Source: Candidatus Omnitrophota bacterium (GTDB taxonomy: Bacteria; Omnitrophota; Omnitrophia; Omnitrophales; Aquincolibacteriaceae). Taken from it: a stretch of DNA of 64,000 nt. Within the stretch, counting starts at the first letter, position 1, and every line of letters starts with the position of its first letter. A program made the translations under genes and the position numbers. Positions 9,727 to 61,395 of the stretch are shown here, piece after piece. Where the stretch lies: the NCBI GenBank assembly GCA_022711115.1, contig JAKLFP010000006.1, positions 86,214 to 150,213 on the forward strand, in the 5' to 3' direction. The notes under the pieces were generated by a model. That model saw only the letters and a program-made list of their open reading frames with translations, was not told where the DNA came from and did not search any database.

Positions 9727-10221
9727 TCACGCTTGTTTCTCATAAAAAACAACTTCAAGCAAGGGATCGTCCTGCAGTTTTTCCCGTGATTTTTCTTTAA
9801 AGGCAGCCGGGATTTCCGGATAAAAAACATCGCCCTGGTAATCGGCGTGAATACGGGTGAGATAAATGCCGTGGGCTCGATTAATGGAAGTCCTGTAAAG
9901 CTCCGCACCCCCAATGATAAAAGCGCGCTCGGTCTTCACATTTTTCAAAGCGTCCTCGAGCGTGGAGAAATAGGTTTGACCTGGATAGGGATTTTGACCG
10001 CTCCGATCCAAAATAAAGTTTTGACGTCCCGGCAACGCCTTGCAACCAAGGCTTTCAAATGTCTTGAGGCCCATAATCACCGTCTGGCCTGTGGTCATTT
10101 TTTTGAAATGCTGCAGATCTTTTGAAAAATGCCAGGGGAGTTGATTCCCCTTCCCAATCACTCGGTTATTCGCAACAGCCACAATATGGTAAAGCACAAA
10201 ACCTCCAAACTTTTTGACCAA
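9727..10221 (-). CDS. folA: Dihydrofolate reductase, second tandem paralog.
   Basis: 164 aa with YHIVAVANNRVIGKGNQLPWHF and FIIGGAELY. Roughly 45% identical to the adjacent DHFR. Confidence 0.88.
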   Translation of the reverse strand: MVKKFGGFVLYHIVAVANNRVIGKGNQLPWHFSKDLQHFKKMTTGQTVIMGLKTFESLGCKALPGRQNFILDRSGQNPYPGQTYFSTLEDALKNVKTERAFIIGGAELYRTSINRAHGIYLTRIHADYQGDVFYPEIPAAFKEKSREKLQDDPLLEVVFYEKQA

Positions 10222-10277: not shown

Positions 10278-11072
10278 TTAAACAGCAACAGGTGCCTTGA
10301 TCGCCGGATGAGGGTCATAACCTTCCAGCTTAAAATCTTCGTATTTAAAATCAAAAATATTTTTTACCGAGGGATTCAGAACCATCTTCGGCAGAGTTTT
10401 CGGCTCGCGGCTCAACTGCAGCTGAACCTGTTCCCGATGATTCAGATAAATGTGCACGTCTCCAAACGTATGCACAAATTCGCCCGACTTCAGACCCGTC
10501 ACCTGTGCCATCATCATAGTCAGAAGCGCGTAAGAAGCAATATTGAAAGGCACCCCCAGAAAAACATCCGCGCTCCGCTGAAAAAGCTGGCAGGAAAGCT
10601 TCCCGTTCAGAACATAAAACTGGAAAAACGCATGGCAGGGCGGCAAAGCCATTCGGTCGATCTCCCCGGCGTTCCATGCGCTGACGATGATTCTCCGGCT
10701 GTCCGGATTGATTTTGATCATGTTAACCGCGTCCGAGATCTGGTCCACCGTCGTTCCGTCATTTTTTTTCCAAGACCGCCACTGAGCGCCATAAACCGGC
10801 CCAAGATCTCCGTTCGCGTCGGCCCACTCGTCCCAGATGGTCACACCGTTGTCTTTCAAAAATTTGATGTTCGTATCCCCTTTTAAAAGCCAAAGCAATT
10901 CATAGAAAATCGATTTGGTGTGGATTTTTTTGGTGGTCACTAGCGGAAACCCTTCCGCCAGATCAAACCGCATCTGATAACCGAAGGTGCTGATCGTCCC
11001 AACGCCCGTGCGGTCTTTTTTTTCGGTGCCGTTTTTGAGGATATGCCGTAGAAGATCAAGATACGGCTTCAT
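10278..11072 (-). CDS. thyA: Thymidylate synthase.
   Basis: 264 aa. Has [10 protein letters not shown] (catalytic Cys motif), [10 protein letters not shown] and the conserved C-terminal PAIKAPVAV. Confidence 0.95.
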
Positions 11073-25992: not shown

Positions 25993-28900
25993 TTACGCGC
26001 TTCTTGCCATCGCGAACTGCGCTTGGACTTCCGTCACAAGCGTATTGATGCGGTCCCCAGCAAGGGTGAGGAAATTCTTGAGCATTTTAGGCATCACCAG
26101 CATCGTATCCGGCCATTGCGCTTTCAGGGCCACGGCCAAAGGTTCGCTCGCATAGGCCAATGGCTTGAGATTTAAAGATAAAATACCGGTACTGCGCAGA
26201 CGCGCGGCTTCTATATCCAGGAGTTTTCTCGCTTCATCCAGATGATCGGCTGGAAGGATCGGCGGCCGATGGGCTTGGGCAAGCTGGATATTGATTTTTT
26301 CAAGGAAGCCGCGGTCTGCGGCATTACGTACTAATACGATAACAGGCGTATCGCCGAAAATCGGACGGATAGCCGCGATCAAGCCATGATCCAGCGCAAG
26401 TTCAGGAGCAAGGATCAAGGCATCGGAGGTGGAAATTGTTTTAATCCCAAGGGCTTTAAGCGCTTGGGTGAAACGAACTTTGTCCAGAACCTGTTGAGCC
26501 TTTTGCACCATAGAATCCGGCAAAAGCGATATGGCAAGTTCCGCCGCGTTAAAGGCATAAGCCTGAAGCGAAACAAGGCCATCAGTCAGCTTTTCCGTTA
26601 CTCCTTCGAAACCTTGCAGGTTCCCGCCACCTATTTTTCTGTTTTCCCTGATCAGGTCTTCGATAGTTTTCACGGCAACACGCTCTGGCGTAAAAGTCGT
26701 CAAAGTAACCGTAGGAAGCGGAACAGACAAAGGAACATTTCCAACAACGGCTGCTGTCATGGTGGGTGTTACCGTATGAATCGCCATGGTTTGCCGCACT
26801 TCCGAACGTGACGCCTTTCCTTTGTCTGCCTGTAATTCAGAATGGATAGGTTTAAGATGTAAAATTTGCGCATGATCCCCATCCCTGACCGGTACGCGAT
26901 GTTTCCAACCCGAAAGCAAGTTATCGCGTTCTCCATAGTTTTCCCAGGTTAACATATCCACTACTTGGTAACGGACGCCCGGGTCGATCATTCTTTCAAG
27001 ACCGTTTGTAAGTGTTGTCGATACTTTCCCGTCACCGGCTAATTCACCCTCCTGAATGCCGAAAATAATCGAGGCAAAAACCATTTGCCCAGAATCACTT
27101 TTCCTTGCGAAAACAAGAGAACTCTGATTGGAAGGATCAAAAACTGTCCATTGATGTCCTTCAGCATCGGAAAGATTGTCTCCAAAAACAGCTTTGATCT
27201 CTGTGACTGCCTTCCGAAGTTTTGAGTAATATCCCGGGTTCCAATGTGCAACTTCGGATTTTTCTAGAAGTTCCGGTCTAAAAAGAGCTATCAGGGTCAT
27301 TAAGGGCTTTATGTTTTCTCCAAAGTAATGGGCCGCATCTTTAGCCGAAAAACTGGCCATGATCGCCAATTGTTCAAAAAAGTGGTCCGACCGTACAACA
27401 CCGTCTGTTAAAGTGTACCCTCTGCCTTTTTGGCGGACGAGTTGTTTCATAAGCGCCATCGCAGAGGTTTCACGGTTTCGGATCTTTTCCGCAATATTGG
27501 CAACTTCCGGCAACTCAATGGCCTCCCATTCTTGGACTTCCACAGCGATGGGCATCGAGATCGACGCAGGAACTTCCGAAGCGACTTCATCGCTATGTTG
27601 AATGGTGTGCTTTTTCTCGTATTTGGGGTCCGAGATTCGAACAAGAGGAACATTGCCCGTTTTTCCGACCAACCCGGCAAAGATAGCCGGATCGATGGCG
27701 ATGGAAGTCCGAGACTTGAAAAGTTTCCCCCCGCTCGAGGGGACTTCTTCTCTCACAGGAGCACCTGTATTAATATTCACCTGAAGCGGTTTTCCTCCTC
27801 GTGGAGTAAAAATGAAAGATTGGATCTCGGTGCGCCGGCTCTTTAGGGGTTTGGCGGCCGGATGACCTTCAAGGTAACGCACAATATAAACAGCCCAAGG
27901 CTGATATTTGGGACTGACGTTTTGCGTCAATTCTTTTCTTAGTTTATGGGCTTCCGCGGGAGAAGCTTGCATGTAACGTTCAAACCAATCACCCGCCATA
28001 CGAAGCAACAGTTCTTCTGTCAGATCCAAAGCTTCCAAATTAAGCCGGATTCTTGTCTTTTCATCTGCCGTTTCCGCTTCCGCGGCTAATTGTCCGATCC
28101 GTTTTTTAAAGGGCTCCAATCCTGAAGAAAATTTGGTGAGGACTTGCTCGCGTAAATATCTGAAGATATCATCGTAATAAACATGATGCCGTAAGCTGTT
28201 TAAGGCTTCAACGCCGCGCGAAGAAGGGCTTCCCGTGGGCTGCCATGTTTTGATTTCTCGAAATGAACGGAACATCCCGAAAAGCCCCAAGCCTTCAGCT
28301 GAATGTTTTCGGAATCTGCTTAAACCCTCCCACACAAAATCAGGCGCCTGCACAGGAACCGCATAATCGGAAAACTGATATTGAAGCTGGCTAAATAACG
28401 CTTCCCGCTCTTCATTTTCCTTGAGCATATTTTCAAACAAATAGGCGTGCCCCATGGCCTGTCCTGTCACCATATCCACACGCCAGGCGGCCGCTACGGA
28501 TTGATACATACGTTCACGGCGGGTCGCAGGATCTTTTCTTAATGCTTTGACTGTTTTCAAGGCTTCAAAGAGACTGCGGGCCGAAGGGCGCCTCCCCCCG
28601 CCTTCCTGGCTACTTTTCTCGCTATCGTCATAGGCTACAAAAACACCGCTCAAAATCTCCCAGTCACCGCTTCTTAAACGTTCCCTCAAAATGTCCTGAG
28701 TGATCACTTTGGTGTTCGGTTCCCCTTTTTCATTCAAGACATCGATCATCGCCCCTGTTTTTCTGTCGCGGATCACCCAAACCTCGGGGTTGCTTCCGGC
28801 AAAAGGTCCGACAACTTCGCCTCCGTTGGCCATGACTTTCATCATGCTCGTGGCGGAAGCTTCCAGATCTTCATCGGACAGCATAACTCCTGCTTGGGCT

Positions 28901-31900
28901 CCTCGAAAAATAATTTGCGCTTCGTAATAGGTGTAATCTTCGAGAGTGGCTATCCGGTCTTCCAATCCGAGAAGTTCCGTCATAAAACGTATATAAAGAA
29001 AACGGTCATGCGCGTCGTCTGCAAAAGTACGCCCGCCGATCAACAGGCGAGACATGGTACGCCGCAAAACTTCAACTGCCGGCTGGTTTTTAAGACGTTC
29101 CCGAAGCCCTTCAAAATCATTTTTATAGCGTCCATGATTTTGATCCCTTCCATCTCTATACGCTTTCCAAAAAAGAAAAAGTTGATCGAAAGGCCTTGCA
29201 AAAGGGCCGGAAAATTCCACTTTAAGCCCGGCTTGAGTCACCGCTTCTTCCACTCTTCGTTTGAGCGTTTCTTCGGCTTCTACGGCTGTCATGATAGGTT
29301 TTTTTATCTTTTGGGCGGCTTCGTCTGCGGCTTTGGCAGCGGTGTCTTTCAATCTTTCTTCATATTTATCCGGACCTTTATAAGGTACCTGGCGTCTGAC
29401 ATTCGATGAAATAGGATCGCCAAGAAGCAGATCGCGGGCTTTCCCATAATTTTGTTCAAGTGTCGCCCAGTTTTCTGGTCGGTTTTCTTGAATCGCTGTC
29501 GAAAAAAGTTCCTGCATTTCTCTTAAATGTCCCGCCAGCTGCGTGTCATCTAAATGGCGTTCCGTTTGATAATCTCTAAACGTGCTCCCAAGCCAGTCGC
29601 TCGCGCCTTTGAAACCGCGTTTTTCGCGGAGCCAGATCAGAAGCTGGGCTGCATCGGCCGCGCTGACCCATTCATTTTGAATCTTGAATTGTTCGCGCAG
29701 ATCCGAATGTTTTTCAAGCTCCTGGAAAAATTGCCGGTCGTTGGCTTCTGAAGGAAGTCCGTTTTCCGGTTTTGGGATCTGAAGTTCTTGCTTAAAACGT
29801 TCGATCAAAAGCCTTCTTGCCGGAGACTGCCAACGCGGCAGAAAAACACCGTTCGTACTTCGAATACCTTTAGAAGGATCATAAAAACCTTTGACGCGAT
29901 GCCATGCGGCGCGAAAAATATTTTTTAGAAGCGCCGGTAAGTGTTCCACAAGATTGACGCCGGAAATGAGATGAAAAACCTCTGCCGTAAACCCGGCAAT
30001 ATCGATCATACCGTCATGAACCAGCGTGGAGCGCAACCATTCGGGGAATCCCAAAAGCTCGTAGTGACCTTCCCAGGCTTCAAAAAGACCCGGACGAAAA
30101 ACCGTATGGTTCAGTGTCACTCGCTTCGCACTCTTGAGATGCCGCACCGGGAGGCTCACGAACACTTCATGGTCCAGAAGAATGATGTTCTGGGGATTGT
30201 TTTGATTTTCAAGGATTTGGATCAGACGTTCGCTCGCGGCGCTGAAGAAAGCCATATCAATTTCGCGATTACCCGTATCGTCGTAAACCTCCAAAAAGGC
30301 CGGCGCTTCTTCTTGTCCATTCGGACCTTTGACATAGGCGTCCAGATAATACTGCGGTGATTTGTGAAATTGAAAATAAGTTTTGTAAACCCGGAAAGAG
30401 ACCGTTCTGGGAACTCCTCTCACGGGAAGTGTGACCTCCAAGGCAATATCGGTAGGATCTAAAAACTTTTTGATGATCTGACCGAGAAGTTTCCGCTGAT
30501 GATGATCATAACCTTTGCCGGGCTTATTTTTGATGAAGTTCCAAAGCGGATGAATCCCGGTTACATTCATCCCGAGCGCAGCCCAGGCTTCAAAAAGGTC
30601 CGGCATCAAAGCTCCAAGGCCGCCTGTCAAAGTTGTTTGGGAAGCTTCCCCTGCAGTCCAAGCGCTCATCTCCGCAGCGATTTTTTCCAGAACAGGCATC
30701 GGAAGACCGCATTCGAATTGCCGGCTATAAATATGCTGTTTATGAACTCGGGGCGTATTAACTTCGACCCACTTTGGCACCTTTTGCTCCCGCAATTCTG
30801 AACGTGGAAAAGACGGGGTTATCCCGAGTGTTTTGAAATCAATATTGATCAGGCGGGGATGGCTTAAAAAATCCAACGCGACATCCCAGGATTTCAGCGC
30901 AAGACCCGCTGCGACAAGATTTAAAACGGTCCTGCGGTACAACTCAAAATCCGGACGGTCGACAAGCTCATAAGCTTCCATGCCCTCATAGAAAGATCCA
31001 TGGCCTGCAGCGGCAAGCTTTTGGATCCCTGCCAGGAAATGGGTCTTGGTGTTTTCTTCGAAAATCTTTTTTCTGACCCAAACGATTGTTTTCCCTCTCA
31101 CACCGTAATACCAGCTTGTCTTCATATCCACTTCGACAAATTCATCTGGCTCCGACGGCCGCTCATAGGTCACAAGCCACTGAAGCATACCGGCTAAATA
31201 GTTCGGAGTAATAACGGAATGGTCTATCAAGCTTCGCACCTCGGATCGCCGGTAACGAATGGTTACTTTGGAATTGTTGATCACGGTGTTTTCCCAACCG
31301 CGGGAAGAAGCAGTGACCGATTGGGTTCCCCAGCTTACGGAAACAAACCGGTATCTATTCATATCTGAAATGCCCGCAGCCCTGATTCCGTCAGCACCTT
31401 CAAAATGATTGTCAATGAATTGCCTCACGGTCAGTCCGCGCGGCACATTGATAAAATTGATTGCGATCAGATTTGAAGCGGGCGCAGAAGGTTTCGGCAT
31501 CTCTTGTTGTTTAGGCGCCGGCGGAAGTATTCCCATAATCTTCGCCGCCATTGCTTCCCCGGCAGCTTTCGCTTTTGTTTCATCCGCCACAGTTAAAGGT
31601 ATTTCTTTTTGAACTGGTTCGACGGGTGTTGTTTTTACCGTTGGCACAGACGGTGTATTCCGGGAAGATAGCGCGGCAGCTTCTTCGGTTTTGGACAAAG
31701 CTTGTATGACAAAATGGAGCTCATTCGTCCACGGGTGATCAGGTCGACGGTCTAAAATAGTAAGCGCTTGGATCCGATGGAGAGGATAATGCTCAGGCTG
31801 GTCTCGAAGCATACGGCGCACCGCTTCAGCAATACGTTCCGGAGCTTCGCCCATGCCCACATGATGCACAAGCTTGCGATTGCTATAGCTTGTATCCGTG

Positions 31901-34900
31901 GACGTTTCAAAACTAATCTCATCAATCCTCATCTTCACCTGGAACATAAGCCGATACACAGCATCCCGGACCTCAGAAGGCGTACGTGCAAACACCTCCA
32001 TAGACTTGGATTCTGCTAATGTTTCCGAAACCTTTTTTGGGCTAATTTTCTCTGAAACAGTCATCACGTCGATCTTCTGCCCGATTTGAAACTCGGGTTT
32101 AGGCGCGACAGTCGGTTGAAGTGTGAGCGTGATCTCGCCTTTGTTGTTCTCGGCAGTCAATAAGAACCATCCGTATATTTCTTGGTGGGATGGCACATTC
32201 GCGAAAAAGTCGTTGCCCGTATCGTTCCAAAATGCTGAGGATTGAATCCGGCGACCTGCGCTTTGATAAATAACTTCAATGGCGTGGTCCCGCGCGATAT
32301 TCCACCGATCACCGATTTGGCGCAATGCGTCGGAAATCCGGTCAAATGTCAGCGGTTCAGAGGTCCACGTGTCTTTAGACGGAGCATAAGAAACGCTTAC
32401 AATGCGGTTCGCGTTATAACCGGTTGAACCGGCTTTCTCTTGGATATAAAGCGTCCCGCCTATCAATGCCTCGAATTTTCCTTCGTAAACAGTTCCATCC
32501 TGCATGGAAAGCTTCAACATCGTCCCCAAAGCGACATTTCCCGCTTGAGCATCCGTTTTAAATTGCGCGAACGGGACTTTGGCAAGCAACGTTTCCGCTA
32601 TGTTTTTGGCCATCCCTTCCGGCTTTGGTTGCTCTTCACCGCGCACTTCCGAGCGTTTGGAATCCACATAGGTTAGTGAGGGAGAGAGACGATCATCGGC
32701 AAAATGCAGCCAAAAAATTTCGCCTTTCTGAATAAGAATATCTCGCCATTCCATCGGACGGCTATAAGCATAACGCTGGCCTTTGCTAGAAACCTCTGCA
32801 CCGACCAGGGCCTTATCACTGAGCGAACGAAGACGGATAAGAGATTCCATCAGATCCGCGAGAGACGATTTCTTTAACGCCTTGACTTTTATGAGTGCTT
32901 CCGAGCCATGGATTATCTGGACAGCCTGCTGCGAAGCGCTAAGCCCGGAACCCGGACTCACTAGGCTTCTCAATTCCGAGCGGGACTCGGCGATGAGGAA
33001 GGAATCGCCGGCTCCGGCAATTTCGAAAGTTTTCAAATCCGGATTCAGAAAAGAGCGCCGGAACGCTTCGCCCAAGGACATCCGTCCCGCACTATCCAAT
33101 TCAATAAAAATGGCCCTGCGATGAATTTGATCCATATAGTCTCTTGCCGCAACCGGATCTTGAGGCGTTGTTTGCTCAACCATTTGCTGCCATGCTGTCG
33201 AAGGATAAACCCGCAAGGCTTTGCCTGCCTTTTCCGATACAGCGATAAGTTGAGTCTCCTCTCCTAACATGGTTCGGAAAGGTGCGGGAAGTTGGATCCT
33301 ATTTTTATCATCCACCTTGAAGGTATAAGAGCTGGTGAAGATCACCGGCGCCCGCACTTCAGAGCGGGAAATCACGGGTAAGAGACCTTTATATTTAAGA
33401 TCAGGTCTTTGTATGCCAAGAGAAAAATTTGAACTGCCATCCGCGTACCGGATCACCCATGGTTTTTCGGTTTTGCTTTGGGCTTCCAGCAGTTCAGAAA
33501 GCGATGGTAACTTCACCGGTTGGCCGTTCTTGAACCATTCCAAAACTCGGTTTTGCTGCGACGTATAGCCCAATTTTTTTGCTAGGGTCTCGCGAAGCGC
33601 TTGGGAATCCATGAACTTCATGGGCCAAGGAGCTTTAAGATCAGGCGGGAACCTTGGATTGGTGCGAATCCCGTATACTTGTTTAATTTCACCATCCTGG
33701 GTGATAAAAATTGCCTGGAGAGGGAAACGGCCGTCAAAGCTGCTTCGTAATTGGTCACCGTCAAAAAACCTGGTTTTAAACCGGCCAAAGTGAACGGAAA
33801 TGTTTTTGGCGCCGGTCCGATAAACGAGTTCATGGTCAGGTCCAAGATAAAATCCTTCGAATTCCGGGCTTCTCGGGTCCTGCGTTCCGTTGAACGCGAC
33901 AACTCCCTGCTCAACCGGCTGCTGATACTTCTGCGCCAAATCGAACAGGATTTGTTCTCCTTCAAAATAAGTGACATACGGATCAAGCGCCTGCGCGAGG
34001 TCCCTGTCCCCGAAAAGATTGCCGACGATTTTGACCGTAACGGGTTGCACTGCCTTTGCCCCTTCCGCTTGAGCAAGGCTGATGATCTCGATGCTGTTCG
34101 GATCCTTCGCAGGTTTAAAATCCACGCCCTCGATCAAATAAAGTTTGTCGCGCCAGGCCTGAAGCTGGCTAATCAATTCATTGATAGTGATCTGCGGTCC
34201 GGTTAATGGTTTCAACGTAATCCTCGATTGCCCGATCTGTATCCACCTTGTCGGGCTCGTCACGGACCGGCTGTAAAGAACTTGGGTTTCCGGTAACGCA
34301 ATGGCCGGTTCGGGTTTCTGTTCAACGGGTTCTGTTTTCTTGACTTCTTCTACAGGGGCTTGCGCTGTCTGAACCGGGGTCTTGGGAGAAGCAAATCCCT
34401 GCCGTTGCTGAGCCGCTTTCTCACGGAGTTCTTGCTCTTTCTGAGCTACTTTTGACACCCTGACATCCCACTGCCCGCTACGGCGGGCGTCGTCTTTATT
34501 CATTCGCACTTCAGAGCGGGAGGTAAGCTCGACAATTTGGACGGTAAGTCTTTTCATTTTCTCTTCAGCGGAAGTATTGAGTAATCGATAGGCCGTAAAC
34601 GGTCCCGCAAGCATTTCCGTCACTTCTTGAAAGCCATATTGCCTGACCTTCGGAATAGCGTAATTGAATTCCACAACCGTGACAGTTTGAGAAGCGCTAT
34701 CGACTTTAGCGATCACTCTTTTCCATGAAATGGAGCCGAGATTGGAATTGTCGATGCGCCAATCCTTAGAGATCAACACGCTATTTTCTAAAGTATCGAA
34801 GTCCCCTGCCGAGGTTTGAGAAGTGATCCTGCCGCTTGCCGTATTATTTTCAAGGAGCTTCAGAAGATCGCCATACGGGATGAATCTAACTTCCCCTTCC

Positions 34901-37900
34901 GCTTGCGAAATAACAAGATAAGATTTGTATGCGTCGTGTTCTTGTTCTGCGACAAAAAAGCTAAGATCGCCTGTGGTTTCATCTTTTTGGAAGTCAAGGA
35001 TCCGTTTCCCGGCAAGGAATGTTTCGATTTCTTTTTGAAGTTCCGCGGCAGAACGCCCATTCGCGGCCTCAAATTCAACCTGCCGTTCACCTTGCTTCAC
35101 GATTAATTTTTGTCCGGATTGTTCAATGATAATTGCCGGCGGCGCTGAGTAAGGCCCACCCCACGGAATGCGTCCTTTTCGGGACAGGCTGCGTACTTCC
35201 GAGCGCAACGCAGGTTTTTCCTGCGGTAATTTTCCCAAAACCGCTCTGGCCGCATCATGAACAAGGCTTTTTCCTTTTTCATCAAGACGATTTCCTGAAA
35301 CAAGCTGCTGGACAACATTGGTCACACGGGCATTTACAAAATCGATGAGATCCTGGACCGTCAAACCTGAAAATTCATAATAGGCCGGTTTGCTTTTGGC
35401 CTGCAAGGCGGCTTCATCCGTTTTTGTGATTTCGATGCCGAATCTTTCTTCGAGAGACTGCATCAGACTCATTTCATCCAGGGAATCCATGCCGAGATCT
35501 TCTACTAACCGATCCGTCAGACGAATTTCTTCCTCGATCGCGGGAGGTAAAACCTCTTTTAAAATATCGATGACCTCTTGATCAATATTTTCACTCACCG
35601 TTCCCCGCATTTCCGAGCGACTGGCCTTTCTTCTTTCATTGATGGCGTGCTGAAAGGCATTCGAAAGTATTTTGTAGGGATTTTGCGAATAAAAATAATT
35701 TTGCCACAACCAATGCGCCAGACCTGAAATCCCGATAAAAATCATGCTAAACGCAACCACGCGGGGGATCTGTTCCTCCGCCGGCAAGAAGAATGTTGCC
35801 GTCCCGATAAGAGGAAATATAATCCCCACCAGGACCTTCATAAAAGCACTGCTCCGTCGGAATTGGAGTTCAGCAAGAAAAGAGGTGGGGTTACCGTTTT
35901 CCGCTTTTTTGTAATTGTCGGCATATCGGTTTTTCATTTTTTCCCACAATTGTTCTAAGCGGTCTAAGGTTATCCGGTTTTTACTATTTGATCGGAGATA
36001 TGCTCTGACCGATTCATCAAGAGAGCGCAATTCAGACCTTGCTTCCGTAAAGAGAACAGGATTGATTAAGTCATGGCTTAAATTAAGGGCATCATATTTC
36101 AAAGCTTTTTTTTGCTGTAAAAGTTGAATGCTTTTTGAAGGAATAGTTCGAAACTCAATACGATCAAACTCTGGGACTGTTTCTGTCCTGACGTTTTTGG
36201 TCGGTTTGATGCCCATGGAAGATATCCAGCCTTCAAAGGTTGTTTCCCCTGCTTCTTCCTGAAAGAAGTAAAAACGAAGTTTGAACGGCCCTTGAACAAT
36301 GTCCTCGGGTCCCAATTCGCGGGACCGGATGGTCCCGGCAGCCCCCGCTAACCATGAAAACCACACAAGATGGGAAAATTGTGTCCTTGGCAAATGTTCG
36401 TGGTGGGAATTATAAAGTTTATCGGGAAGTGCGAGATAGTGCTGTACCGCCTTACGGTTCTTAAACAACGTGATCATAAGACCTAAGGATCCTTGCTCAT
36501 CACCTTCAAAGTCATGGGCATCCAACCGAAGCTCCCGCTCCCATCCGATGCCTCCATTTCTCATATTCCAAACAAGCGGTTGGTGGACCAGATCCGACAG
36601 TTTGAATAAAGGTCCCTGAACAGCCCGTACTTCGGAACGAGTTTCCAGCTTCCTTGGCATAAAGAAATTTCCCGCATCGTCCTTCGAATCCCCCATAGAA
36701 AGCTGCTCGATGCCTTTAAAAACTTCGGCAAAAAACTTTTTTGCTTCGGCCTGTCTTATAGATTTTGAAGCGATAGAAAATTCCACTGTGATATCACGGC
36801 CATAGCTATTCAGCATCGCCTGCGTGTGATAGTTCAAGCCTAAAAGGGTCATCTCGTCCCACGACAAAAGATTAAATCTCTGTCCGTCGCTGCGAATAAT
36901 GGCTGCTTGAAAACTCTTGTCTTGAACAAGATATTTTCTTTCGAGAAGATGTTTGGTTCTGGCGGTAGGCGCCGTGTGAAGCCCGAGAGCGTTTCCGATG
37001 CTGTATTTCTTTGCCGCGATCCAGCGATCTCCTATTTTTGTCAGCTTAAAATCAGTTTTTCTTAATTCGGAGCGCTGATCGTTCATGTAATTCGGCTTGC
37101 GGGTCACCGGAAAAGCAGGCTCGGCGGTTTTTCGGGCATATGCAAGCAGGTATTTCTGCATTTTTTCGTATTTTGTACCGACGTTGATCGGGCCTTCGAT
37201 CCCACGGATGGGCTCCGTCAGTGTGAATCCCGCGGCCCGAAGAAGTGTTTCGAAATAACTCGGCGTGACAGTAAAGACCCAGCCATTGAGAAGTCGATCG
37301 CCGCTTAATTTTTGATTTTTAGGCTTGAAGATATTTCCCCCCGGGGCCCATCGGACAAAAAGAGGCGCGTCTTTTTCGAGAAGGTCCCTGAGCGAAAGTA
37401 ATGCGTTTAGCTGTTCTTCGGGCGAAAAATAAAGGAGCACATCGCTGATAAAAATCCCTCCGAAAGTTTTCCCGTTGAAATCAGCCGTTCGGAAATCGGC
37501 GGTCATGAACCTGTCTTTAGACATGTCCCCGAAAGAGGGATCTTCGAGAGCGGCTTTGATAAGCGACGGCGAGATGTCCGTTCCCCAAAGGTCGGTAAAT
37601 CCCTGTTCCTTAAATTTCTTGAGCGCCCTTCCGATGCCCATACCCACATCAAGAATGCTTTTATCCTTGCCGGCCATCAACGCCAGGAACTGATCGATCG
37701 TTTCTTGATGCGGAGAAACGTTCCAATCGCGGAGCTTATGGCGTTCAAAATCAAGGGAGAATTCATCATCCGTCCAGTACCGGACATTGCTGATCGCCGG
37801 GTCGGGGGGTGATTTTCTGAAGGTTTCTACCGCCGCCTGGAATTCCGGAGAAGTTTCCATCAGCGTTGCCAAAACCCGGGCAAATTCCGGATGATGTCTT

Positions 37901-49900: not shown

Positions 49901-52900
49901 ACTTGCTGTTTGATCTTTTCCTTAATCTCAAACGCTATTCGTTTTTTCGCCCCGGGATCTTTTTCTGCCTTGTATTTGAGCCACATGTCCCGCGTATCCA
50001 CAAACGCGATGTCCACGTTCACGCCGCCGAACCACTTCAGCAAAATCCTTTTCCCTTCCGATACCGCGCGCATCACGGCCGGCCACTGCAGTCCGATCCC
50101 AAGCACCGCGGAAGCGTCCGAAAAAATCACGATCTTTCTTTTTTGAGCCGGGAAAGACAAAGGCTTTTTGCCGTAAAGCGGCGTTTCAAGGTCCAGGCCT
50201 TTTTTCAGCGCGTCCGCGATCGCTTCACAAACGGCTCCCACGCCGGGGGTATAAACCGTCTTCATCGCTTCGATCACATCGACCGGGACAATGCCGTGCT
50301 TAAAAAATATGTCGATGAGTTTTTTGTAAGTCTGATATTCCGATGGGATCGCCGCCGGCAAGCTGTCCTCAGATGTCTCCCGAACTTCAGACCGGGGTCT
50401 GCTTTCCATACTAACCGCTACTTTGCAATTATTTGTGTCGGCCCGGGTCCTTACGCGGACATTTTCCCATCCCAATCGGGTAAGGTTTTTGAATGGAATA
50501 TCAAAGACAACCCAAGTTGTCCGATTTGAATCTACAATAAGCGAAGCTTCTTCTATCAATGCGTGGATATCTCCGTAGATATCAGCAGGCCTTTTCCCGG
50601 AAGGATCCACGTATAACCGCATAGGGATCCGGATCCGATCGTCCGGCTCAATGAGTTCGACTTGAAGTTGTTTGTGATCCTTAAAGAAGGATTGCTTAAC
50701 AAAAATATTGACGGCTTTGTCGTTTGTTTCGACGAAACCCGGAACCAAAAGGCTGATATCCTGTGCGGGTAAATGCCATTGGGGGCCTATGAAATCTCCC
50801 AGCGGCTCCCGAAAACTCCATGCCGTCAGCGCAAGAATTAACAACGCCATAGCCATACTTAGGTTTAAGAAAATAGCCCGTGAACTTAGGTTTGGATTCC
50901 ACCAGCGCCTTATCTGGGTGTCTGTGCGTGAAGCTTCTGGGATGGCAGCAACAGAACCGCCTTTCGGGGGCATGGTTCGTATTTCGGAACGGCGTCCAAA
51001 AGCTTTGGTAAGCGCTTCGGCAAGGGCTTTCGGATTGTCCCATGGAGCAAGATGTAATGAGGAATCTTTTTTGGGGTTTTTAAAAACAATTTTTTTCTGG
51101 AAAGGTTCAAGGCTTCGTTTTTCTCCTGACTGTATGACAGACACTTGTTTTGAGTTCAATCCAAGCGCCCGCTGTAATGTTAAAACAAGGTCTTCCGGAC
51201 TTTGCACAAAATCCAACGGGGCCATGTCAATGCCCACCCAAATACCGTTTCCAGCCTGATGAAAAGTTACCTCATACCCAAGTACTTTTGCCGTCTCACC
51301 CCGCATTTCGGAACGGCCCAGGTTTTGGCTTGGATCTGTTCTACCATTTGCGCGCTGATGAACGTTGATGATCGTTTGGGCGATCTCCATGGAGTTCATA
51401 ACAAAACCGTCTTTCATCACCGGTTTTACATTTTCGGTAACAAACTCCGAGGGACCCTGAGCGTAAACAAGCAACTGGCCGTCTTCGCTCTCAATAACAT
51501 GAATCCCATTCGGCAATGTCCTTCCCATACCTTGGATCAATCCTGCGAGCTGTTTTGCCGAGAAAACCGTGGTGTAATCACCGATGACCGCCGCAAGAGA
51601 TGTCGGATCTTTCCGGCTAGCGGCCCTCACTTCAGCCCGTTGAATGGCAGCAATTGCATTTTTTGCACTTAGGTGAACGGATGGATCTGAATCATTCAGC
51701 GCTGAGTAGAGCGCTGAAAGCGCTGGTTGGGCCTGGGGACCAATTTCCCCAAGTGTGATAATGGTCTGCTCACGAATCTCCGGAGAAGGGTCCCTCAATT
51801 GGGGCATTAACTGCCAAACTGCATCGCCCGCCTCAGAACCCAAGGCGCCAATAGCGGCAATGGCCTTTAAACGCACCTCTTTTTCCGGGTCGCCGATTAA
51901 ATGAAGCCAATCACTCACATTTTTCGGCATAGCCGTTTCAGACGTACTCCTCATTTCAGAGCGATTGTCCGCGGGATGTTTTCCTTCGAAGTGTGATGGT
52001 TTTTTGACAAAGGTGACTTTAGCGGTTGTCCCTTTAGGATAAGGATGTTTCAGGGTTTCGGGATTTTTTAAATCAACTGCTTTATGGCCGGGAGATGGAA
52101 TGATGCTGGCAATGTATTCACCGCCGCCTAGATTTTCACGTACCTCAACGGCTCGCTTGATAGCCTTGAGCGTCATGGTTGCCTCAAGTTTATAGATTTT
52201 AAAATGAAGGGCGTCGTCAGCTTTCACTTCCGTTAGCCCTTTGACCTTCGTCCTCATCTCGGACCTGGCAGAACGGCTTTTCAGGGTATCTATTTTTCTT
52301 TGACCCTCTTGATCTTCCGGTTGGATATAGCGGTGCAGAAAATGCCAAAGAAGAGATTCAGGAGTGAGAAGCGACTGGTCCCAAACCGGCATGTCTTTAA
52401 AAATCGTCTTGAATCGTTTCAGGACGTTGAATACAAAATCATTCTGCTTTCTCTGGAATTGCTGGGCATAGGCGATTTCGATTAACGGCCCCAAAAAACG
52501 GTTAAGAAACGGCAGTTCATAAGCAAGTTGTGTATTAATGGAACGATGCGCTTTTTTCATGGTTTTAAAGCTACGTTCCGTTTCTTCGAATCTCATCTTT
52601 TGCCATCTCCGGATCACCTCGGCAACCGTATGCTCCGGTCCCACCACCAAACTTGCGAGGATATCCCGCATCAAGCGGATGTCATAACCTGTCAGGATAT
52701 TATTGCCGTAAAGCAGCATATCAGGACTTGTATAAAGAAAGATCCCATAATGTGTTTCTTCAGGTTTCAAAACGGCCAACAACTCATCACTCAAAGCTTC
52801 AACCCCTGTCACAATCAAGGTCTCGTCCGGCGCAAGCTGCAAAAGCTGTTTTTCTCCTCGGTCGTCTTTAACGCGGATTTTCTTCCCGTCCAAAGCATTA

Positions 52901-55900
52901 CGGACATCCCACGGATTGGCAAATTCAAGGTCCAAATGTTTCAGCTTAAGACCTGCTTGAGCGAGCATTTCAGAGAGCTCTTCGGTGATTCCATGTTTGC
53001 CCGAAGCGCGCATGCCACCGATCAAGATCACCTTGGGTTTTTTCTCAAGGATCTCACGGATAACCTCCTCGGTCTGTTGCTTTTTGGATCGATCCACCTT
53101 TTCGACCAATGCTTTTCTTTCCTCTTCGGTTTTGATCGCTCGAAGTTCGTCGAGAGTTTCGGGCAGAAGTTCCAGGCTCATGCCTTCAAGGTCATAAGGT
53201 TTTTGGCCCTCAAGTTTTTTCGCCCATGCTTCGGGATGGCGCGCCAATTCCGCATTCATAATACGGATGACGGCCAAAATAAAGGCTGCTTTTCGAAGAC
53301 TTATTTTTTTCGCGTCGGCAATACGAACAACATTGTTAAAAGCGCTGATAATTTTATCTTCCATAATGCGGTTCACGGCATCTTCCGGCCATTGTTCACG
53401 AACAAGGTTCTGCCGCCATTCCAGGTAAGAAACGATCACGCCGCCCGCATTGGCAACCACATCCGGAACAACGATGACACCTTTTTGCTTCAAAATTCCG
53501 TCGGTTTCCTTGTTTTTGATCGGTCCGTTGGCTGCTTCAATCACCAATTTGACCCGGAGCAAACGGGCAATGCGTTCATCAATGGTATTTTCGAGTGCGG
53601 CAGGCACTAGGGTATGAACCTCGCTGGCCCAAAATTCTTCCTCGGAGATCACTTTCACTTCTTCGGGGTATTCTTTTGCATAATCCAAAATGGTTTTCCT
53701 GGGAAGCATGTTGCCGGCCGCGTCTTTCCTGGGTGCCAGGAATTCCAGAATCTTGGGAATGTTCAAACGTTCACCGGTTTTGGTCGCAATAGCGCCTTCT
53801 TTTTCTTTCACGGCCATAATCCTTGCTCCATTTTCATGAAAGATTTGCGCGCCATGCCCGCCCACATTGCCGAGTCCTTCAAACGCAACGGTTTGTTTTT
53901 CTATCTCTGTCCCGATGCCGAGCCGGGCTCCAAAAACTTTGACTGCTTCGCGCCAGACAAAAAACACCCCACGGCCTGTTGCTGCAGTCCGACCATGTGA
54001 ACCGCCTTTTTTCTCGGGCTTGGCGGTCACCACAGCAATGGGAGATCCTTCTACCATTGGAATTTTATGCTTTTCAGGATTTGCTAAATACGCGTCTAAA
54101 TAGGGTGTGTCGACATCTTTGGAATTGCTTAGTTTCCACCGAAATTCGATTGTTTTTTTGAATAATTTGTCATGCTTAATCTTTAAAAATTCATCTGCCA
54201 TCCATGCCATTTCCTTTTCTCCAGTGCCGACATCCGGAGCCGGAATATCATTCAAAGGACCGATCGCATCGGCATCTTTGGCAAGCAAAGCCTTCACATA
54301 ACCTCGAGTCAATCGTGCGAGCTCGCCTTCTGAAAGCTCGCGCGGATTCACGGCAATGCCTCCCTTGCCCCCTCCGTAAGGAAGCCCTGTGATGGCATTT
54401 TTGATGCTCATCCACATGGAAAGAGCCTGCACATCCTCAAGATCGACATTCGATTTATAGCGCACACCGCCTTTTCCCGCCCCCCGCGCATCATTGTGAT
54501 AGACGCGATAGCCTTTAAAGATCTTTGTGGTGCCATTATCCATACGCACCGGAATATTTACTTCAAGGATACGATAAAAGCTGAGGAGCCATTCAAGAAG
54601 TTGGGGATCAAGGTGGATCAGCTCTGCGACCTCCGAAACCTGACGCTTTGCATTATCAAGGGCCACCTGACCTTCGGATGCTTTTGCCTGTGCTTCTTTT
54701 TCTGCTCGCACTTCGGACCGTCCTTCAAGTTGGCCGGGCATGTCGGCCATCAAAATTCCCTCGTCATCTGACAGCAACGTCTGCTGACCGCCAGGCGCTA
54801 CATAGCGCGACACCGGCCTGCTGAGTTTTTTTCCTCCGCTGAAATTCAGGAAAGCGATCGGTTTCCGGTTGAATTTTTCAGAAAGTTTGGAAGCCCAAAA
54901 ATCAGCGCTAAACTGATCCGTTCCGGCCACTACCAAAATCTGGTCTGCTTCTGATAATTCGTTAAATAACCTGTCGGGAGGTGAAGTGATGTCGATGGCC
55001 CATTCACTCTCATTGCAGATGAGCAGTGCCAGTTTGAATTTTTGATTCAATAAAATGATTCGCGATTCTTGGTTATGAGCGTATTTCTTGAATTCTGTTT
55101 TTTGAACTCGACCCGTTCCATCGGAAAGGAAAAAGACATAGAAAGCCCTTAAGTACTCCAGCCCTTCGGGAGGGATCCTCTCCAAACCGTAGCCGACCGA
55201 AATTCCAAGACGCCGGACCGTTTCTGAGAGAATTCTTTCTCTTTCTTTTTCGCGTTCCGGAGTGTAGCTGTTCCAACCCACAACTTCATCCGGGCTTTCA
55301 GGGAAAACAACAAGATCGGGGGCATTTGTTCCGAATTTATCTTTGAGCCCTTGCAGAATCCCCGCCATTCTGGCTGTGCTCGCATCAAAATCATTTTCCT
55401 TCATTTGGACCCAAGCGATCCTTGGAGCGTCACTTTTTGCCTTTTCGTCAAGCCACACAATCTGTGCGGGTAACGCTTCTTCTTTTTTTCTCACTTCGGA
55501 ACGAGAAGAAACTTCGGGCGGCTGTTCTTCAAAAAGAAGATCAAGGGCCAACTGACCTTCTTGACCATAACCTTTCTGCCGAAACAGATCTTCTAAGCGA
55601 GGGCGTTGTACGAGGTCGCTGAAATCCGCATCTTCGGAAATTTGGTCTTGTATGGTCTTGCGAAGCAATTCCAGAATCCTTCCCGCGGATGAATAATCAG
55701 AACCACGTTGAGTCTTACGAATAAGAGAATCTGTTAACGCCGTAAAAATATTAGCGAGAAAAATAGTGTCTCGAGCTTCCTGAGAGATATTGGCAGGAAC
55801 ACGGCTGGCTGGTTTTTGATCCTGCATTTTTGCCCTCGCAATAGCACTTTGAATCCAGTCCATGACCGTTTTCTTGGTTTTGTTTTCAGTCCTCACTTCA

Positions 55901-58900
55901 GAACGAACTGTGGCAGAAACCGTCATCTTTTCAAGAAGCTTTTGAGGTACAGGACGGCCCTCCTCAAAAAAATTGGCTGTCGCCCAATCATAAATGGCAC
56001 CCCCTACGGATTTTTGGGCTTGGAAAAAGTTTTCTTCTTTATTGCCGGGAAATTTTGATAACGTTTCGCCGGCTACCTTTAAAAACTCACTTTCAAGAAA
56101 TGTTTGCATCTCCTTTTTTCGCTTGGATAAATCCTGAAAAAATTTTCTTTCTTCTGCACTTGCGGTTTCTTCTATGTTTTTGGGGCGTTCAAGGAGTCTT
56201 TCGATAAAAAGCTTGGCGTAGAATTGCGCCATTTCGAGGTTAATCTTGTCCCATTTTAAATTTTTAAGCTCTTCGAGGGCTTTCTGCGCTTGCTGCCCCG
56301 CCGTCGTCAAAGCATCTTTTTTGGATAGGGCCAATTTTTGCCAATATTCGGAAGGCATACTCGCGATCATTTCGGGCGTTAGGTCATCCGCGCGAGTTGC
56401 GTTTTTGATTTTTTCCCAAGCAGCTTCGTTTTGTGCTAGGAATGCAGCTTCAGCTTCTCTTTTTTCAGCTTCAACGGCTTCCAGCTCTTCGATCTCCTTG
56501 TTTGTCACATCGAGTAAGAGGCGGCTCTTTTTCTCTAGAGCTTTTTGTTTTAACTCAGGAGTCGGCAACGCTTCGATGATTTCTTTTGTGATTTCTCCTG
56601 GCTCTGTTGCGTTCTGAACTACGGTGAGAGCATTCTTTACAGCCTGTCGCTTATTTTGCTCAACAACGCGCATGTAGTCTGTTTGAACCTGACCCATTTG
56701 CTTTGCTGTCCTGGTTTCTCCTTCTTGCATCAGTTTGGCTGTCGCTAATGCCTTTTTTTTAGCCCTTGCTAATTCCTGCCAATATCCGGATGGCATCCTT
56801 GCGATCATGGCTGGGGTGATGCTTTTGCTGCTTGTGGCTGTCCGGATGGTTTCCCAAACTTTTTTATTTTTTTCTGCTTGGACATCACCGGATCTCCGGA
56901 CTTCAGCTTCTTCAGATTCCATCTTCGAAATTTCCGCAGCTGTTATCTCCGAGAAAAGACGGCTTTTTGTCGCGATGGCTTCCTGTTTCAACGCCTGCGT
57001 CGGCAGTGCGTCGATAATTTCTTGCGTGATTTCTCCGGGCTCCATGGCACGCCGCACTACTTCTAAGGCATTTTGGATGATTTGCCGATCGTGCGCCTGA
57101 AGTTCGCGAGTCTGTTGCTCAAGCAAGGCTGTCTGACGAGCTTCACCGGCCGCTATGACTTTCCCCCATGACAATTGAGAAGCTTTTATTGCCGCTTTTT
57201 GGGCCTTTTGAACAGCAGCTTCTTTTGCAGCTTTTTCATCGGCCTTTTTCTTCGGTAAGGCAGCTCCCTGGGCAAGTTTCGACTTTTGAGCTGCTTCTTT
57301 GGATTTCTGAGTTTCTTGTTTCTCCCTTTCTTTTTGTTCCTTGGCCAACAAAGTAGCTATCTTCAAGGCTTCTGCCTTTTGAGCCGCCTCCTTGGCTTTT
57401 TGAGCCGCTTTTTCTTCCTCTTCTCTTTGTTTTTTTTCTAAAGCAGCTATTTTCGCAGCTTCTGATTTTTGAGCTGCTCTTTCTTCTTTTTCTTTTTCCT
57501 TTTTTTCAAGAGCGGCTAATTGGGCTTCGGACAAGCTTGGCTTTGCCGGTCGCGAAGTAATAATCTTTGGCTCTCTCCTTTGAGCCCGTTCAACCAAATA
57601 AGTTTTAAGAACCTCGCTTTCGGGATACATCTGCTGCAACTGGGTCATGGCACCATGGATCTGCTCCATGGTTCCCGTTTTTTGGATCTGGCGCACGCGG
57701 GCTTCTACTGCATTCCGAACGGTTTGAATATACATGTCCCTGTCACGCCGCTGCCTTTGTTTGATCTGTTGCAGATCCAAAAGTTTTTCGGCTGTCTTTT
57801 TTAAATCAGGATGTTTCGCGACCCACTGAGCCAATGCTTCTTGGAAGCGCCGGCCAATAAACACATTTCTTTTGCCAAAAAAAACATCCGCATTCCCTTT
57901 CCCATAGATTTGATTGATCTTCCGTCCGATACTTGTTGTTTCGATGACGCGCAGTTCGTTGGCGAGTATTTCAAGAGGAACGGGCATATTTTTGAATTGC
58001 GGGTTTCCATAATCGCGGATTCTTTTCAAAGCGCTATCCACTAATTCTGTGAAATCTTTATTTTCACTCGGAAGATGCAGTCCCCAAACTCCCATCTCCC
58101 TGAAATCCACTTCAAAACGGTGGATCGTGGAAGCTACAATCCCCGTTGTTTTTTCAAGGGCTTCCTTCAAACGAAGAAGCGTCAGCTTTTGATCTTTCGC
58201 GAGTTCTTTTTCGAGGTCTTCGACAGTCTTTATCACGGTATCGAACGTCAGCGTGACATGGCCGAGATTGACCTTTGTTTCCTTTGCTTTCTTTGCTCTT
58301 ACCTCGGAGCGAGAATGCGAAAGAAAAAGTTCCTGGATAGCCGACTTCTGATAATTCATGTCGGCGGGCCAGTCCTTTCCAAGAACGCCGTGGGCCCATT
58401 CGTGAAGATCCGCAAGAATATCCAAGAAAAATGCTTCTTTGGGATGGAGATCCGCAAGCTCGTGCGCGTAACCGATAATAGAAAACCGTTTGAGTGAATC
58501 AAGAAAAGTCAGTGCGCCATGAAAATTTGTATCCGCCGTACCGGCCTCAAGCGCCAAAAAAAGATCTTCCGATTCCTGGATCAATCGCTCAAGAAGTGGC
58601 CGCCAAATTTGATGCGCGGGAGTAGAGCTCGAGAGATTCCATTGTTGCAGGACCTTTACAAGTCGATTGTTGGTCCGGTCTAAAAGGCTCTTCAGCTCCT
58701 TGATGGATTTTTCATCCGCAGGCGAAAAAGAAATATTCCTGGAAAAAACAACCCCATAGAAATTTTTATCCGGTATCGGAGAAATCCCAGGGACATGCTG
58801 CCTGGTGAACATATCCAATGCCTCAAGCCATAAACCTGAAAGCTGATAATAAACTGCTCCAAAATGCGCCAAAAGCACGTCACCCTCTTTGGCATTCCCT

Positions 58901-61080: not shown

Positions 61081-61395
61081 GAAATAGGTTGTCTTTCCTT
61101 ATTTCCGATCTGGATCTTTAGGTATGAGAAAACTCGCTGAAAGCGTAACATATTTTTTTATAATTTCAAGTTCTTGAAAAAGGATTTATTAATGCATGCA
61201 TTAAGATTTTAAATTTCGTTACTAATGACACTCCATTGCTATATACTGCTAGAATAAGAAAATTCATGGCAGGAGCTGTCTCTACTCCGTGTTGATTTTA
61301 GACACGATCTGGGCTATATATATTGTGCATTGCGCGAGAGTTCCAAGGTACACTGCAATAAAATTACGTAATGCTGTTTCCAAAATGAGGACACG
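61081..61395. promoter_or_regulatory. AT-rich divergent intergenic region between the giant ORF (minus) and its stand-alone TraB-like paralog (plus). Presumed bidirectional promoters.
   Basis: 315 bp, strongly AT-rich (tataatttcaagttcttgaaaaagg..., ctatatact...). Both flanking ORFs have SD-like sequences adjacent to their ATGs. Confidence 0.4.

Follow-up and report, generated by a model that had tools for sequence, protein, structure and literature searches.

Is a reading frame that runs for 35 kb through dozens of unrelated proteins an artefact of assembly, a single giant protein or a chain made to be cut apart? The question is raised by the genome of a Candidatus Omnitrophota bacterium (assembly GCA_022711115.1), of which we analysed 64,000 nucleotides (nt) of contig JAKLFP010000006.1 (positions 86,214 to 150,213 of the forward strand; hereafter, the window). 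The minus-strand frame 25993..61080 was confirmed to be one open reading frame (ORF) of 35,088 nt and 11,695 codons with a sole, terminal stop. By our own estimate, which takes ~5% stops per random codon at the base composition found here, the chance of such a stop-free length is ~1e-260. An earlier sequence-only reading of this DNA had described about 36 gene-sized modules fused in frame, ~320 amino acids (aa) long on average, and had offered as explanations a polyprotein or operon-as-one-ORF, a stop-less gene array with alternative decoding, or a chimeric or synthetic assembly. The gene-sized fusion holds, and the figures became 39 modules with a mean of 300 aa (range 40-1,332 aa), delimited by a five-residue peptide, R-S-E-[VMLIA]-R, that punctuates the translation at 38 junctions. 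Comparative evidence (the motif, its co-variation within genomes, the signal peptides, the equivalence of modules to genes and a protease-fold N-terminal module, m1) best supports the first of the three explanations, and we consider it probable, short of confident, that the giant gene encodes an operon-scale polyprotein, which would be cut at its junctions by a dedicated endopeptidase.

25993..61080 (-): giant ORF; ATG at 61080-61078, stop at 25995-25993; 39 modules, 38 R-S-E-x-R junctions, 5 Cys

The reading frame and its junction peptide

The same locus was recovered via a flanking gene from four assemblies that differ in samples and pipelines (ENA ERZ27257456, JGI 3300009838, JGI 3300025706 and NCBI GCA_035390585.1). 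A product of exactly 11,695 aa is called on each of them, and their DNA is identical to that of the window over the comparable first 9.7 kb. A strain variant present in Logan ERR7850085 and ERR7850084 carries 43 single-nucleotide polymorphisms (SNPs; 26 synonymous and 17 non-synonymous), none of which creates a stop, and a single 9-nt in-frame indel near ~53033 on the minus strand, in the C-terminal domain of module m6. The SNPs are concentrated at 51.6-54.2 kb, and one of them turns the junction peptide RSEMR into RSEIR (aa 3043). To judge from these substitutions, the pattern is that of a gene under purifying selection with its frame preserved. An assembly chimera, computational concatenation or synthetic DNA, for which the odd structure alone would speak, was therefore rejected, given the four independent assemblies with their identical 9.7 kb and a natural variant with mostly synonymous SNPs and an in-frame indel. 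Homologous genes also number in the thousands in Omnitrophota, long-read complete genomes with giant genes have been published, and we give this explanation next to no credence. An altered genetic code or stop reassignment was likewise rejected, because the flanking genes have standard stops and normal sizes. Scans of the flanks for a promoter and a terminator gave no informative signal.

The strict pattern RSExR occurs at 33 sites, against 0.21 expected (2,000 shuffles, maximum 3), and five near-variants (RAEVR, HSELR, RFEVR and two copies of RNELR) complete the 38 junctions. At its fixed positions the motif draws on each of the four TCN codons for Ser, on both codons for Glu and on five or six of those for Arg, and this synonymous variation indicates that the conserved unit is the peptide and not a DNA element; an origin of the junctions in a DNA repeat or mobile element was rejected on the same grounds, as third codon positions vary. 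The sequence-only reading had suspected neo-N-termini after an Arg, and a conserved motif does end there, the full RSE[VMLIA]R being an addition to that reading. Small residues are preferred on either flank of the motif, immediately before it (P6, 51%) and immediately after it (P1', 44%), compared with a background of 27%, and residues that are destabilising under the N-end rule make up only 14% at P1' versus 31.5% in the background. In the structure model, the tail of m1 that carries the junction is disordered (predicted local distance difference test score, pLDDT, 24-40). Small P1' and P6 residues together with a disordered flank constitute a protease-like site context.

Could the modules be separated without proteolysis, either by ribosomal peptide-bond skipping of the StopGo/2A type or by mRNA processing at the motif with internal restart? 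What speaks for this is the choice of codons. At 25 of the 38 sites in the window, GTG, ATG or TTG serves as the variable codon, and across the window junctions and 307 sites of the related loci L007-L085, the first Arg of the motif (P5) was encoded by CGY in 80% (background 41%), Ser by TCN in 91% (background 67%) and the last Arg by AGR in 43% (background 26%), with the variable codon (P2) ending in G in 63%. A Shine-Dalgarno-like sequence is, however, not enriched ahead of the modules, where it precedes 8 of 38 (background 17%), whereas real genes have it in 15 of 24 cases, and Met directly follows the motif at only 3 of 38 junctions here and in ~2% family-wide. In relatives, the variable position is often filled by Thr, Ser or Ala, none of them start-like, and a short motif so diverse between genomes (RSExR, RPESR, LSDSR) fits a fast-evolving protease-substrate pair and not a conserved ribosome. 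Moreover, third codon positions are free to vary, Rfam gave no match anywhere in the window, and an mRNA cut would leave non-stop fragments. Skipping or restart thus appears very improbable, and the codon variation within the motif, its genome-specific variants and the lack of Shine-Dalgarno enrichment make the earlier suggestion of a stop-less array with alternative decoding unlikely as well.

The modules and their free-standing counterparts

In order of translation, the giant ORF consists of the following modules.

59188..61080 (-): m1, 631 aa; signal peptide/anchor MGYFKKLKRLL-SSIVVITFSITNTI, then a domain of TIKI/TraB/erythromycin-esterase fold; ends ...EARSEVR
58297..59187 (-): m2, 297 aa; without family match; ends RSEVR
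55891..58296 (-): m3, 802 aa; without family match; Glu/Lys/Ala-rich helical stretch; ends RSEVR
55489..55890 (-): m4, 134 aa; without family match; ends RSEVR
54706..55488 (-): m5, 261 aa; weak nitrilase/Lnt-like signal only (TIGR00546, E 0.011, sub-threshold); ends RSEVR
52252..54705 (-): m6, 818 aa; full-length glutamate dehydrogenase and a ~320-aa C-terminal domain; 0 Cys; ends RSEMR
51949..52251 (-): m7, 101 aa; no identity assigned; ends RSEMR (RSEIR in the strain variant)
51625..51948 (-): m8, 108 aa; HEAT repeats; ends RAEVR
51301..51624 (-): m9, 108 aa; no identity assigned; homologous to a module of the L028 giant ORF; ends RSEMR
50977..51300 (-): m10, 108 aa; no identity assigned; ends RSEIR
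50380..50976 (-): m11, 199 aa; hydrophobic helix 33 residues past the junction; ends RSEVR
48652..50379 (-): m12, 576 aa; malic enzyme; ends RSEVR
45568..48651 (-): m13, 1028 aa; UDP-sugar pyrophosphorylase, NAD-dependent epimerase and a C-terminal extension; ends RSEAR
45325..45567 (-): m14, 81 aa; ends HSELR
44647..45324 (-): m15, 226 aa; ends RSELR
44215..44646 (-): m16, 144 aa; first residue Met; hydrophobic helix 10 residues past the junction; ends RSEMR
43768..44214 (-): m17, 149 aa; ends RSEMR
42829..43767 (-): m18, 313 aa; full-length member of the inositol-monophosphatase family; ends RFEVR
42103..42828 (-): m19, 242 aa; secreted paralog, signal peptide directly past the junction; ends RNELR
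41983..42102 (-): m20, 40-aa tail; paralog of m26; ends RSEVR
40468..41982 (-): m21, 505 aa; secreted paralog, signal peptide at +2; ends RSEAR
40180..40467 (-): m22, 96 aa; homolog in the giant ORF of L028; ends RSEMR
39391..40179 (-): m23, 263 aa; secreted paralog, signal peptide at +2; ends RSEVR
38746..39390 (-): m24, 215 aa; internal hydrophobic helices; ends RSEVR
38020..38745 (-): m25, 242 aa; secreted paralog, 54% identical to m19; Met and signal peptide; ends RNELR
37897..38019 (-): m26, 41-aa tail; ends RSEIR
37060..37896 (-): m27, 279 aa; S-adenosylmethionine (SAM) methyltransferase; ends RSELR
36625..37059 (-): m28, 145 aa; ends RSEVR
36025..36624 (-): m29, 200 aa; ends RSELR
35605..36024 (-): m30, 140 aa; two hydrophobic helices; ends RSEMR
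35191..35604 (-): m31, 138 aa; acyl-carrier-protein-like (PP-binding, DSL site); ends RSEVR
34504..35190 (-): m32, 229 aa; ends RSEVR
33352..34503 (-): m33, 384 aa; first residue Met; ends RSEVR
32968..33351 (-): m34, 128 aa; MraZ, Pfam match from module residue 4; ends RSELR
32641..32967 (-): m35, 109 aa; ends RSEVR
31234..32640 (-): m36, 469 aa; ends RSEVR
30790..31233 (-): m37, 148 aa; ends RSELR
26794..30789 (-): m38, 1332 aa; conserved core module; weak phosphorylase and starch-synthase-like signals only; ends RSEVR
25996..26793 (-): m39, 266 aa; conserved C-terminal module, ~40% identical in L007, L016, L018 and L026

At least 10 unrelated Pfam families lie along the giant ORF, one occurrence apiece. 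Pfam or PDB matches bear out most of the identities that had been read from the translation, namely glutamate dehydrogenase (GDH), malic enzyme, UDP-sugar pyrophosphorylase with epimerase, inositol monophosphatase (IMPase), SAM methyltransferase, acyl carrier protein (ACP) with its DSL site, MraZ and the HEAT-repeat protein. Three other readings came out weaker: the presumed CN-hydrolase yielded only a sub-threshold Lnt match (E 0.011), the presumed alpha-glucan phosphorylase only sub-threshold Phosphorylase and GT5 matches and a PDB match of 59 aa, and the supposed five or more signal-peptide paralogs proved to be four (m19, m21, m23 and m25). No homolog was retrieved with the secreted paralog m25-m26 as query. 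The ORF is not a megasynthase of the non-ribosomal peptide synthetase or polyketide synthase kind, as Pfam detected one PP-binding match and no C, A, KS or AT domains.

The native-looking termini that had been ascribed to the modules were corroborated. The GDH match of m6 (E 1e-57) spans positions 1-239 of the 241-position profile, with residue 18-21 of the module aligned to residue 9-11 of solved GDHs; the IMPase match of m18 covers profile positions 9-246 of 271 and its alignment starts at residue 8-22; and the IMPase, MraZ and ACP matches begin 4-15 residues past the junction, those of MraZ and ACP within 4-10 residues of it. The two-domain architecture of m6 is also found as a free-standing, monocistronic gene of 796 aa (P0159) amid ordinary genes. 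From these GDH, IMPase, MraZ and ACP alignments and the free-standing counterpart of m6, it follows that module ends coincide with native protein ends. Malic enzyme (m12) matches a PDB entry with E 8e-36, and the two halves of m13, UDPGP and epimerase, occur apart in relatives L025 and L024. MraZ modules are also present in the giants of L014, L018 and L026, and the counterpart of m27 in L016 (57% identical) likewise begins right past a junction. Module m38 is carried by 13 related loci, the best four being 55-59% identical, and junction motifs flank it in the orthologs inspected.

Modules m19, m21, m23 and m25 each bear a signal peptide 2-8 residues past the junction, with no return helix between these modules, and family-wide, hydrophobic segments are 2.4-fold enriched within 15 residues past junctions. 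Under the rules of signal-peptide topology, one uncleaved chain would be unable to export all four. This bears directly on the possibility that the chain stays intact as a giant, membrane-anchored multi-enzyme protein, the current published reading of such genes (bioRxiv 10.64898/2026.06.07.730766), with RSExR serving as a linker, a hinge or a docking motif for a non-proteolytic partner (a chaperone, secretion factor or modifying enzyme). Consistent with an intact chain are the signal peptide at its N-terminus, together with ~10 internal hydrophobic segments (judged by hydropathy only), as well as an extreme depletion of cysteine. The giant chain contains 5 Cys, or 0.04%, compared with 1.06% in the flanking genes; the GDH module m6 has none, whereas 120 free-standing homologs average 3.3; and across 158 family proteins the content is 0.10%. 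Avoidance of pre-stop codons was rejected as the cause of Cys loss, because the content of Trp, Tyr, Glu, Lys and Gln is normal. Cys is typically depleted to such an extreme in secreted or surface proteins of very large size, such as RTX and autotransporter proteins. Nevertheless, an intact chain seems improbable to us in view of the four N-terminal-type signal peptides, which are incompatible with one topology, and of modules that amount to complete free-standing genes and include the obligate homo-oligomers GDH and MraZ. GDH hexamers and MraZ rings would be hard to assemble from units inside a 1.3-MDa chain. The protease-like site context argues in the same direction, and relatives whose whole genomes have Ala or Pro in place of the motif Ser exclude Ser modification as its general function; Ser-based autoproteolysis and Ser phosphorylation were rejected as a general mechanism for the same reason.

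Several further observations concern individual modules. Modules m8, m9 and m10 (50977..51948) are consecutive and each exactly 108 aa long, with no mutual similarity detected by BLASTP. The closest free-standing homolog of the GDH module (P0160, L088:105-1589; 494 aa) is free of Cys, bears a signal peptide at its N-terminus and is followed by separate glycosyltransferase and glycogen-debranching genes; this GDH is apparently exported, an oddity in its own right. The Glu/Lys/Ala-rich helical stretch of m3 (~aa 1180-1300 of the giant protein) coincides with a strong AT skew of -0.36 at 56001..58000. Two antisense ORFs inside the giant gene, 52528..53610 (+; 360 aa) and 60136..61140 (+; 334 aa), are probably non-coding, as shadows cast by the long sense frame.

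Relatives, junction variants and the N-terminal module

Relatives of the same architecture were found in the lineage. A scan based on m1, with an alignment of 8 sequences, led to 79 related genome loci, most of them titled Omnitrophota or Omnitrophica and the remainder 'uncultured bacterium'. Their m1-headed ORFs usually exceed 3,000 aa or run off the fetched DNA, carry many junction motifs and contain 0-0.5% Cys, mostly no more than 0.3%. In total, 607 RSExR sites were counted in the 390,916 aa of the 158 family proteins. Orthologous genes of 3,218-3,750 aa retain m1 first and m38 and m39 last, with different modules in between, and the module boundaries of these orthologous giants coincide with the motif. 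Judging by these alignments, the junction-delimited modules appear to behave as exchangeable cassettes.

The motif is uniform within a genome and different between genomes, even for paralogous giants with m1 domains only 27-50% identical. Thus, RSESR is used in 4 genes of CAZDVO, RPE[SA][RK] in 3 genes of CAYQTU and RAExR in 3 genes of DAOPYQ, and L030, which is devoid of R-x-E-x-R, has 11 copies of LSDSR. A recurrent (G/A)A-SLG-x-E in L083 and L038, which also lack R-x-E-x-R, and in P0143 is a possible further variant (SLGxE). The concerted change of many sites in several paralogous genes points to a trans-acting reader of the peptide that co-evolves with it.

Two further genes of the window belong to this family, the first of them next to the giant gene.

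61396..63573 (+): free-standing m1 paralog, 725 aa, divergent from the giant gene; IQDxHA, LEGA and TGGFHTDG motifs, as in m1; N-terminal hydrophobic segment
1..6942 (-): second polyprotein-type gene, at least 2,314 aa, with ATG at 6942 and extending beyond the left window end; m1-type N-terminal domain

The second gene contains the junctions RSEIR, RAEVR, RSEVR and RSELR and a single Cys in an open segment of 2,325 aa. It had no Pfam or NCBIfam match, and the 725-aa paralog had no Pfam match. Proteins of ~1,000-1,060 aa that belong to the m1 family and are free of junction motifs are encoded in many Omnitrophota genomes (for example L033, L039, L050, L063 and P0035-P0058); the ~1,000-aa proteins, too, matched nothing in Pfam or NCBIfam.

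Comparison of the structure model with known folds places m1 in the TIKI/EreA/TraB/RRSP type, an alpha/beta fold whose core is a parallel beta-sheet. Neither Pfam nor NCBIfam yielded a match for m1 even at E 0.1-1, the TraB, Cofac_haem_bdg and Erythro_esteras models included, and its predicted kinship to the TIKI/TraB superfamily is visible at the fold level only. Residues H79, H84, E112, E187 and H503 are invariant in 121 m1 sequences, and GGFH(500-503) is also family-invariant. The TIKI-fold superfamily uses a catalytic set of two His and two Glu and includes true endopeptidases (PMC6254334); the spacing of H84 and E112 in m1 equals that of H85 and E113 in Bcr135 (PMC6254334), a correspondence in sequence spacing, and the invariant His and Glu of m1 are candidate counterparts of that catalytic set. 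An m1 profile matched 9,846 cluster representatives (50% identity), of up to 7,498 aa, and m1 was N-terminal in all 150 of those listed.

Pfam detected no peptidase domain along the giant ORF, and m1 is the sole protease-fold candidate found in the window. It might itself be the junction protease and, like a viral leader protease, act on the downstream chain either in cis or at the translocon. Its place at the N-terminus in the 150 listed representatives and in 63 of 67 motif-rich open segments of related loci (an ascertainment-biased count), its fold, shared with TIKI-superfamily hydrolases including the endopeptidase RRSP, the invariant His and Glu residues and the free-standing paralog adjoining the giant gene all favour such a role. 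It is disfavoured by the divergence of m1 paralogs within a genome (27-50% identity), whose genes nonetheless have a common motif variant with no genome-specific m1 residues, by a predicted N-in/C-out anchor that would place m1 outside the cytoplasm, by a junction tail that is not docked on m1 in the model, and by a superfamily that also includes esterases and non-enzymes. All told, we rate m1 as the junction protease a minority prospect, rather unlikely.

Elsewhere in the window, tandem dihydrofolate-reductase paralogs (9193..9684 and 9727..10221, both on the minus strand) lie directly downstream of a thymidylate synthase gene (10278..11072).

Proposed processing of the chain and known systems

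In the mechanism that we favour, about 39 complete proteins (soluble enzymes and DNA-binding, membrane and signal-peptide proteins) would be translated as one chain from a single start, and each junction would act as a short flexible linker in which [small]-R-S-E-[V/M/L/I/A]-R-[small] serves as the recognition peptide. The cut would be made in trans by a sequence-specific endopeptidase that co-evolves with each genome's motif; it probably falls behind the second Arg and probably happens ahead of membrane targeting or in its course, upon which the signal-peptide modules would be exported and the others released as ordinary soluble proteins. Under this scheme m1 could alternatively direct the growing chain to the membrane or act as a hydrolase in some other capacity.

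Several observations weigh against this mechanism. Some family members, among them L029 and P0140 (7,376 aa, 0 Cys), have no recognisable junction motif, and the m1 copies of variant-motif genomes show neither shared genome-specific substitutions nor co-variation with the motif. Codon usage in the motif is biased, a hint of some influence at the nucleotide level, and the bias might come from cassette exchange by microhomology. The preference for small residues is symmetrical about the motif (P6 and P1'), and to that extent the scissile bond is not pinned. The m1 signal anchor, with its predicted N-in/C-out orientation, would place m1 outside the cytoplasm, yet the mix of modules with and without signal peptides argues for cytoplasmic cleavage. 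Cytoplasmic processing would also leave the near-absence of Cys unexplained, which points to export or an extracellular life of the whole chain. Finally, we infer cleavage, its site and its agent from sequence patterns, a circumstance that favours the published view of intact membrane-anchored giants.

Giant genes of Omnitrophota have been described before, with a speculated cleavage by C39 or S8 domains at points that were stated to be unknown (West-Roberts et al. 2023, bioRxiv 10.1101/2023.11.21.568195), and a 'multi-enzyme metabolic cluster' class of giants was subsequently defined and read as intact and membrane-anchored (Nielsen & Lui 2026, bioRxiv 10.64898/2026.06.07.730766). The giant gene is a member of that class (class 1 of Nielsen & Lui): it comes from Omnitrophota, its ORF is at least 10,000 aa long, it contains many Pfam families with none dominating, and it has a signal peptide and, by hydropathy, putative transmembrane (TM) helices. 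As in the published class, unrelated Pfam families, among them methyltransferase and starch-synthase-like domains, tile one polypeptide. No mention of the junction motif or of Cys depletion was found in the text of either paper; TraB is not mentioned in the text of the 2026 preprint, and no search of the 2023 paper for a TIKI-like domain at the N-terminus was made. Literature searches for the motif RSEVR, for Omnitrophota polyproteins and for bacterial polyproteins of such a kind returned nothing relevant. The claim that this strategy had not been described for bacterial chromosomal genes was too broad, given the published giant ORFs of Omnitrophota and the processing of MARTX toxins. New here, in that we did not find them described in the literature searched, are the junction code with its co-variation specific to each genome, the TIKI-fold domain as an N-terminal hallmark and the Cys-free composition.

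Bacterial genes are expected to follow one protein per ORF, with co-expression achieved through operons, and post-translational separation of fused genes would be a distinct mode of organisation. If the proposal is correct, at least 42 of the 64 kb in the window are encoded as polyprotein, and the published Omnitrophota giants (up to 147,155 aa) are mostly strings of ordinary proteins, to be reread as such, since their TM-helix counts, topology models and size records assume one chain. The junction motif would then supply cleavage points, the lack of which had blocked module-by-module annotation according to the 2023 paper. The analysis also defines a large TIKI-fold-headed family (~9,800 clusters at 50% identity) and a simple, testable peptide code, and the Cys-free composition may bear on protein delivery by these host-dependent nanobacteria.

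Among bacterial proteins, MARTX toxins are likewise multi-thousand-residue chains whose unrelated effector modules are freed by site-specific proteolysis, and their effector RRSP has the TIKI fold, as does m1. The giant chain is nevertheless not a MARTX toxin: it contains 0 GGxGxD motifs and hence no RTX repeats, no cysteine protease domain and only 5 Cys in 11,695 aa, and it differs in its junction motif, in the metabolic or housekeeping-like nature of its modules and in their far greater number. The gingipain and HagA polyproteins of Porphyromonas and the multi-core precursors of ribosomally synthesised and post-translationally modified peptides (PatE) are also bacterial and cut at repeated sites, after Arg or Lys in the case of gingipains, but comprise few related domains or short peptides and not dozens of unrelated full-length enzymes. 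In Euglena and dinoflagellates, nuclear-encoded plastid polyproteins string together units of light-harvesting complex and RuBisCO small subunit through a conserved decapeptide linker, which a dedicated protease removes; unlike the modules described here, these units repeat one and the same protein in tandem, belong to a eukaryote and are processed after import into the organelle.

The likeness to viral polyproteins may extend beyond a single gene. We put at somewhat under an even chance the broader proposal that a large share of the Omnitrophota proteome is made in a virus-like way, as operon- to genome-island-sized polyproteins with a genome-specific junction code, a co-evolving endopeptidase, exchangeable cassettes and Cys-free products for export or host delivery. 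The polyproteins of picornaviruses, potyviruses and flaviviruses similarly comprise one ORF with many unrelated proteins, short junction peptides and small residues after the site, encode a protease-fold domain and mix soluble, membrane and secreted products, and the flavivirus site, (K/R)R followed by G, S or A, formally resembles the junction found here. Like them, the giant ORF contains several complete, unrelated proteins and a conserved, putative recognition sequence at every junction. Unlike them, it is a cellular, chromosomal gene of 35 kb that encodes housekeeping-type enzymes in a nearly Cys-free chain, with several such genes per genome, it bears no homology to viral proteases, and its putative protease would probably act in trans and genome-wide.

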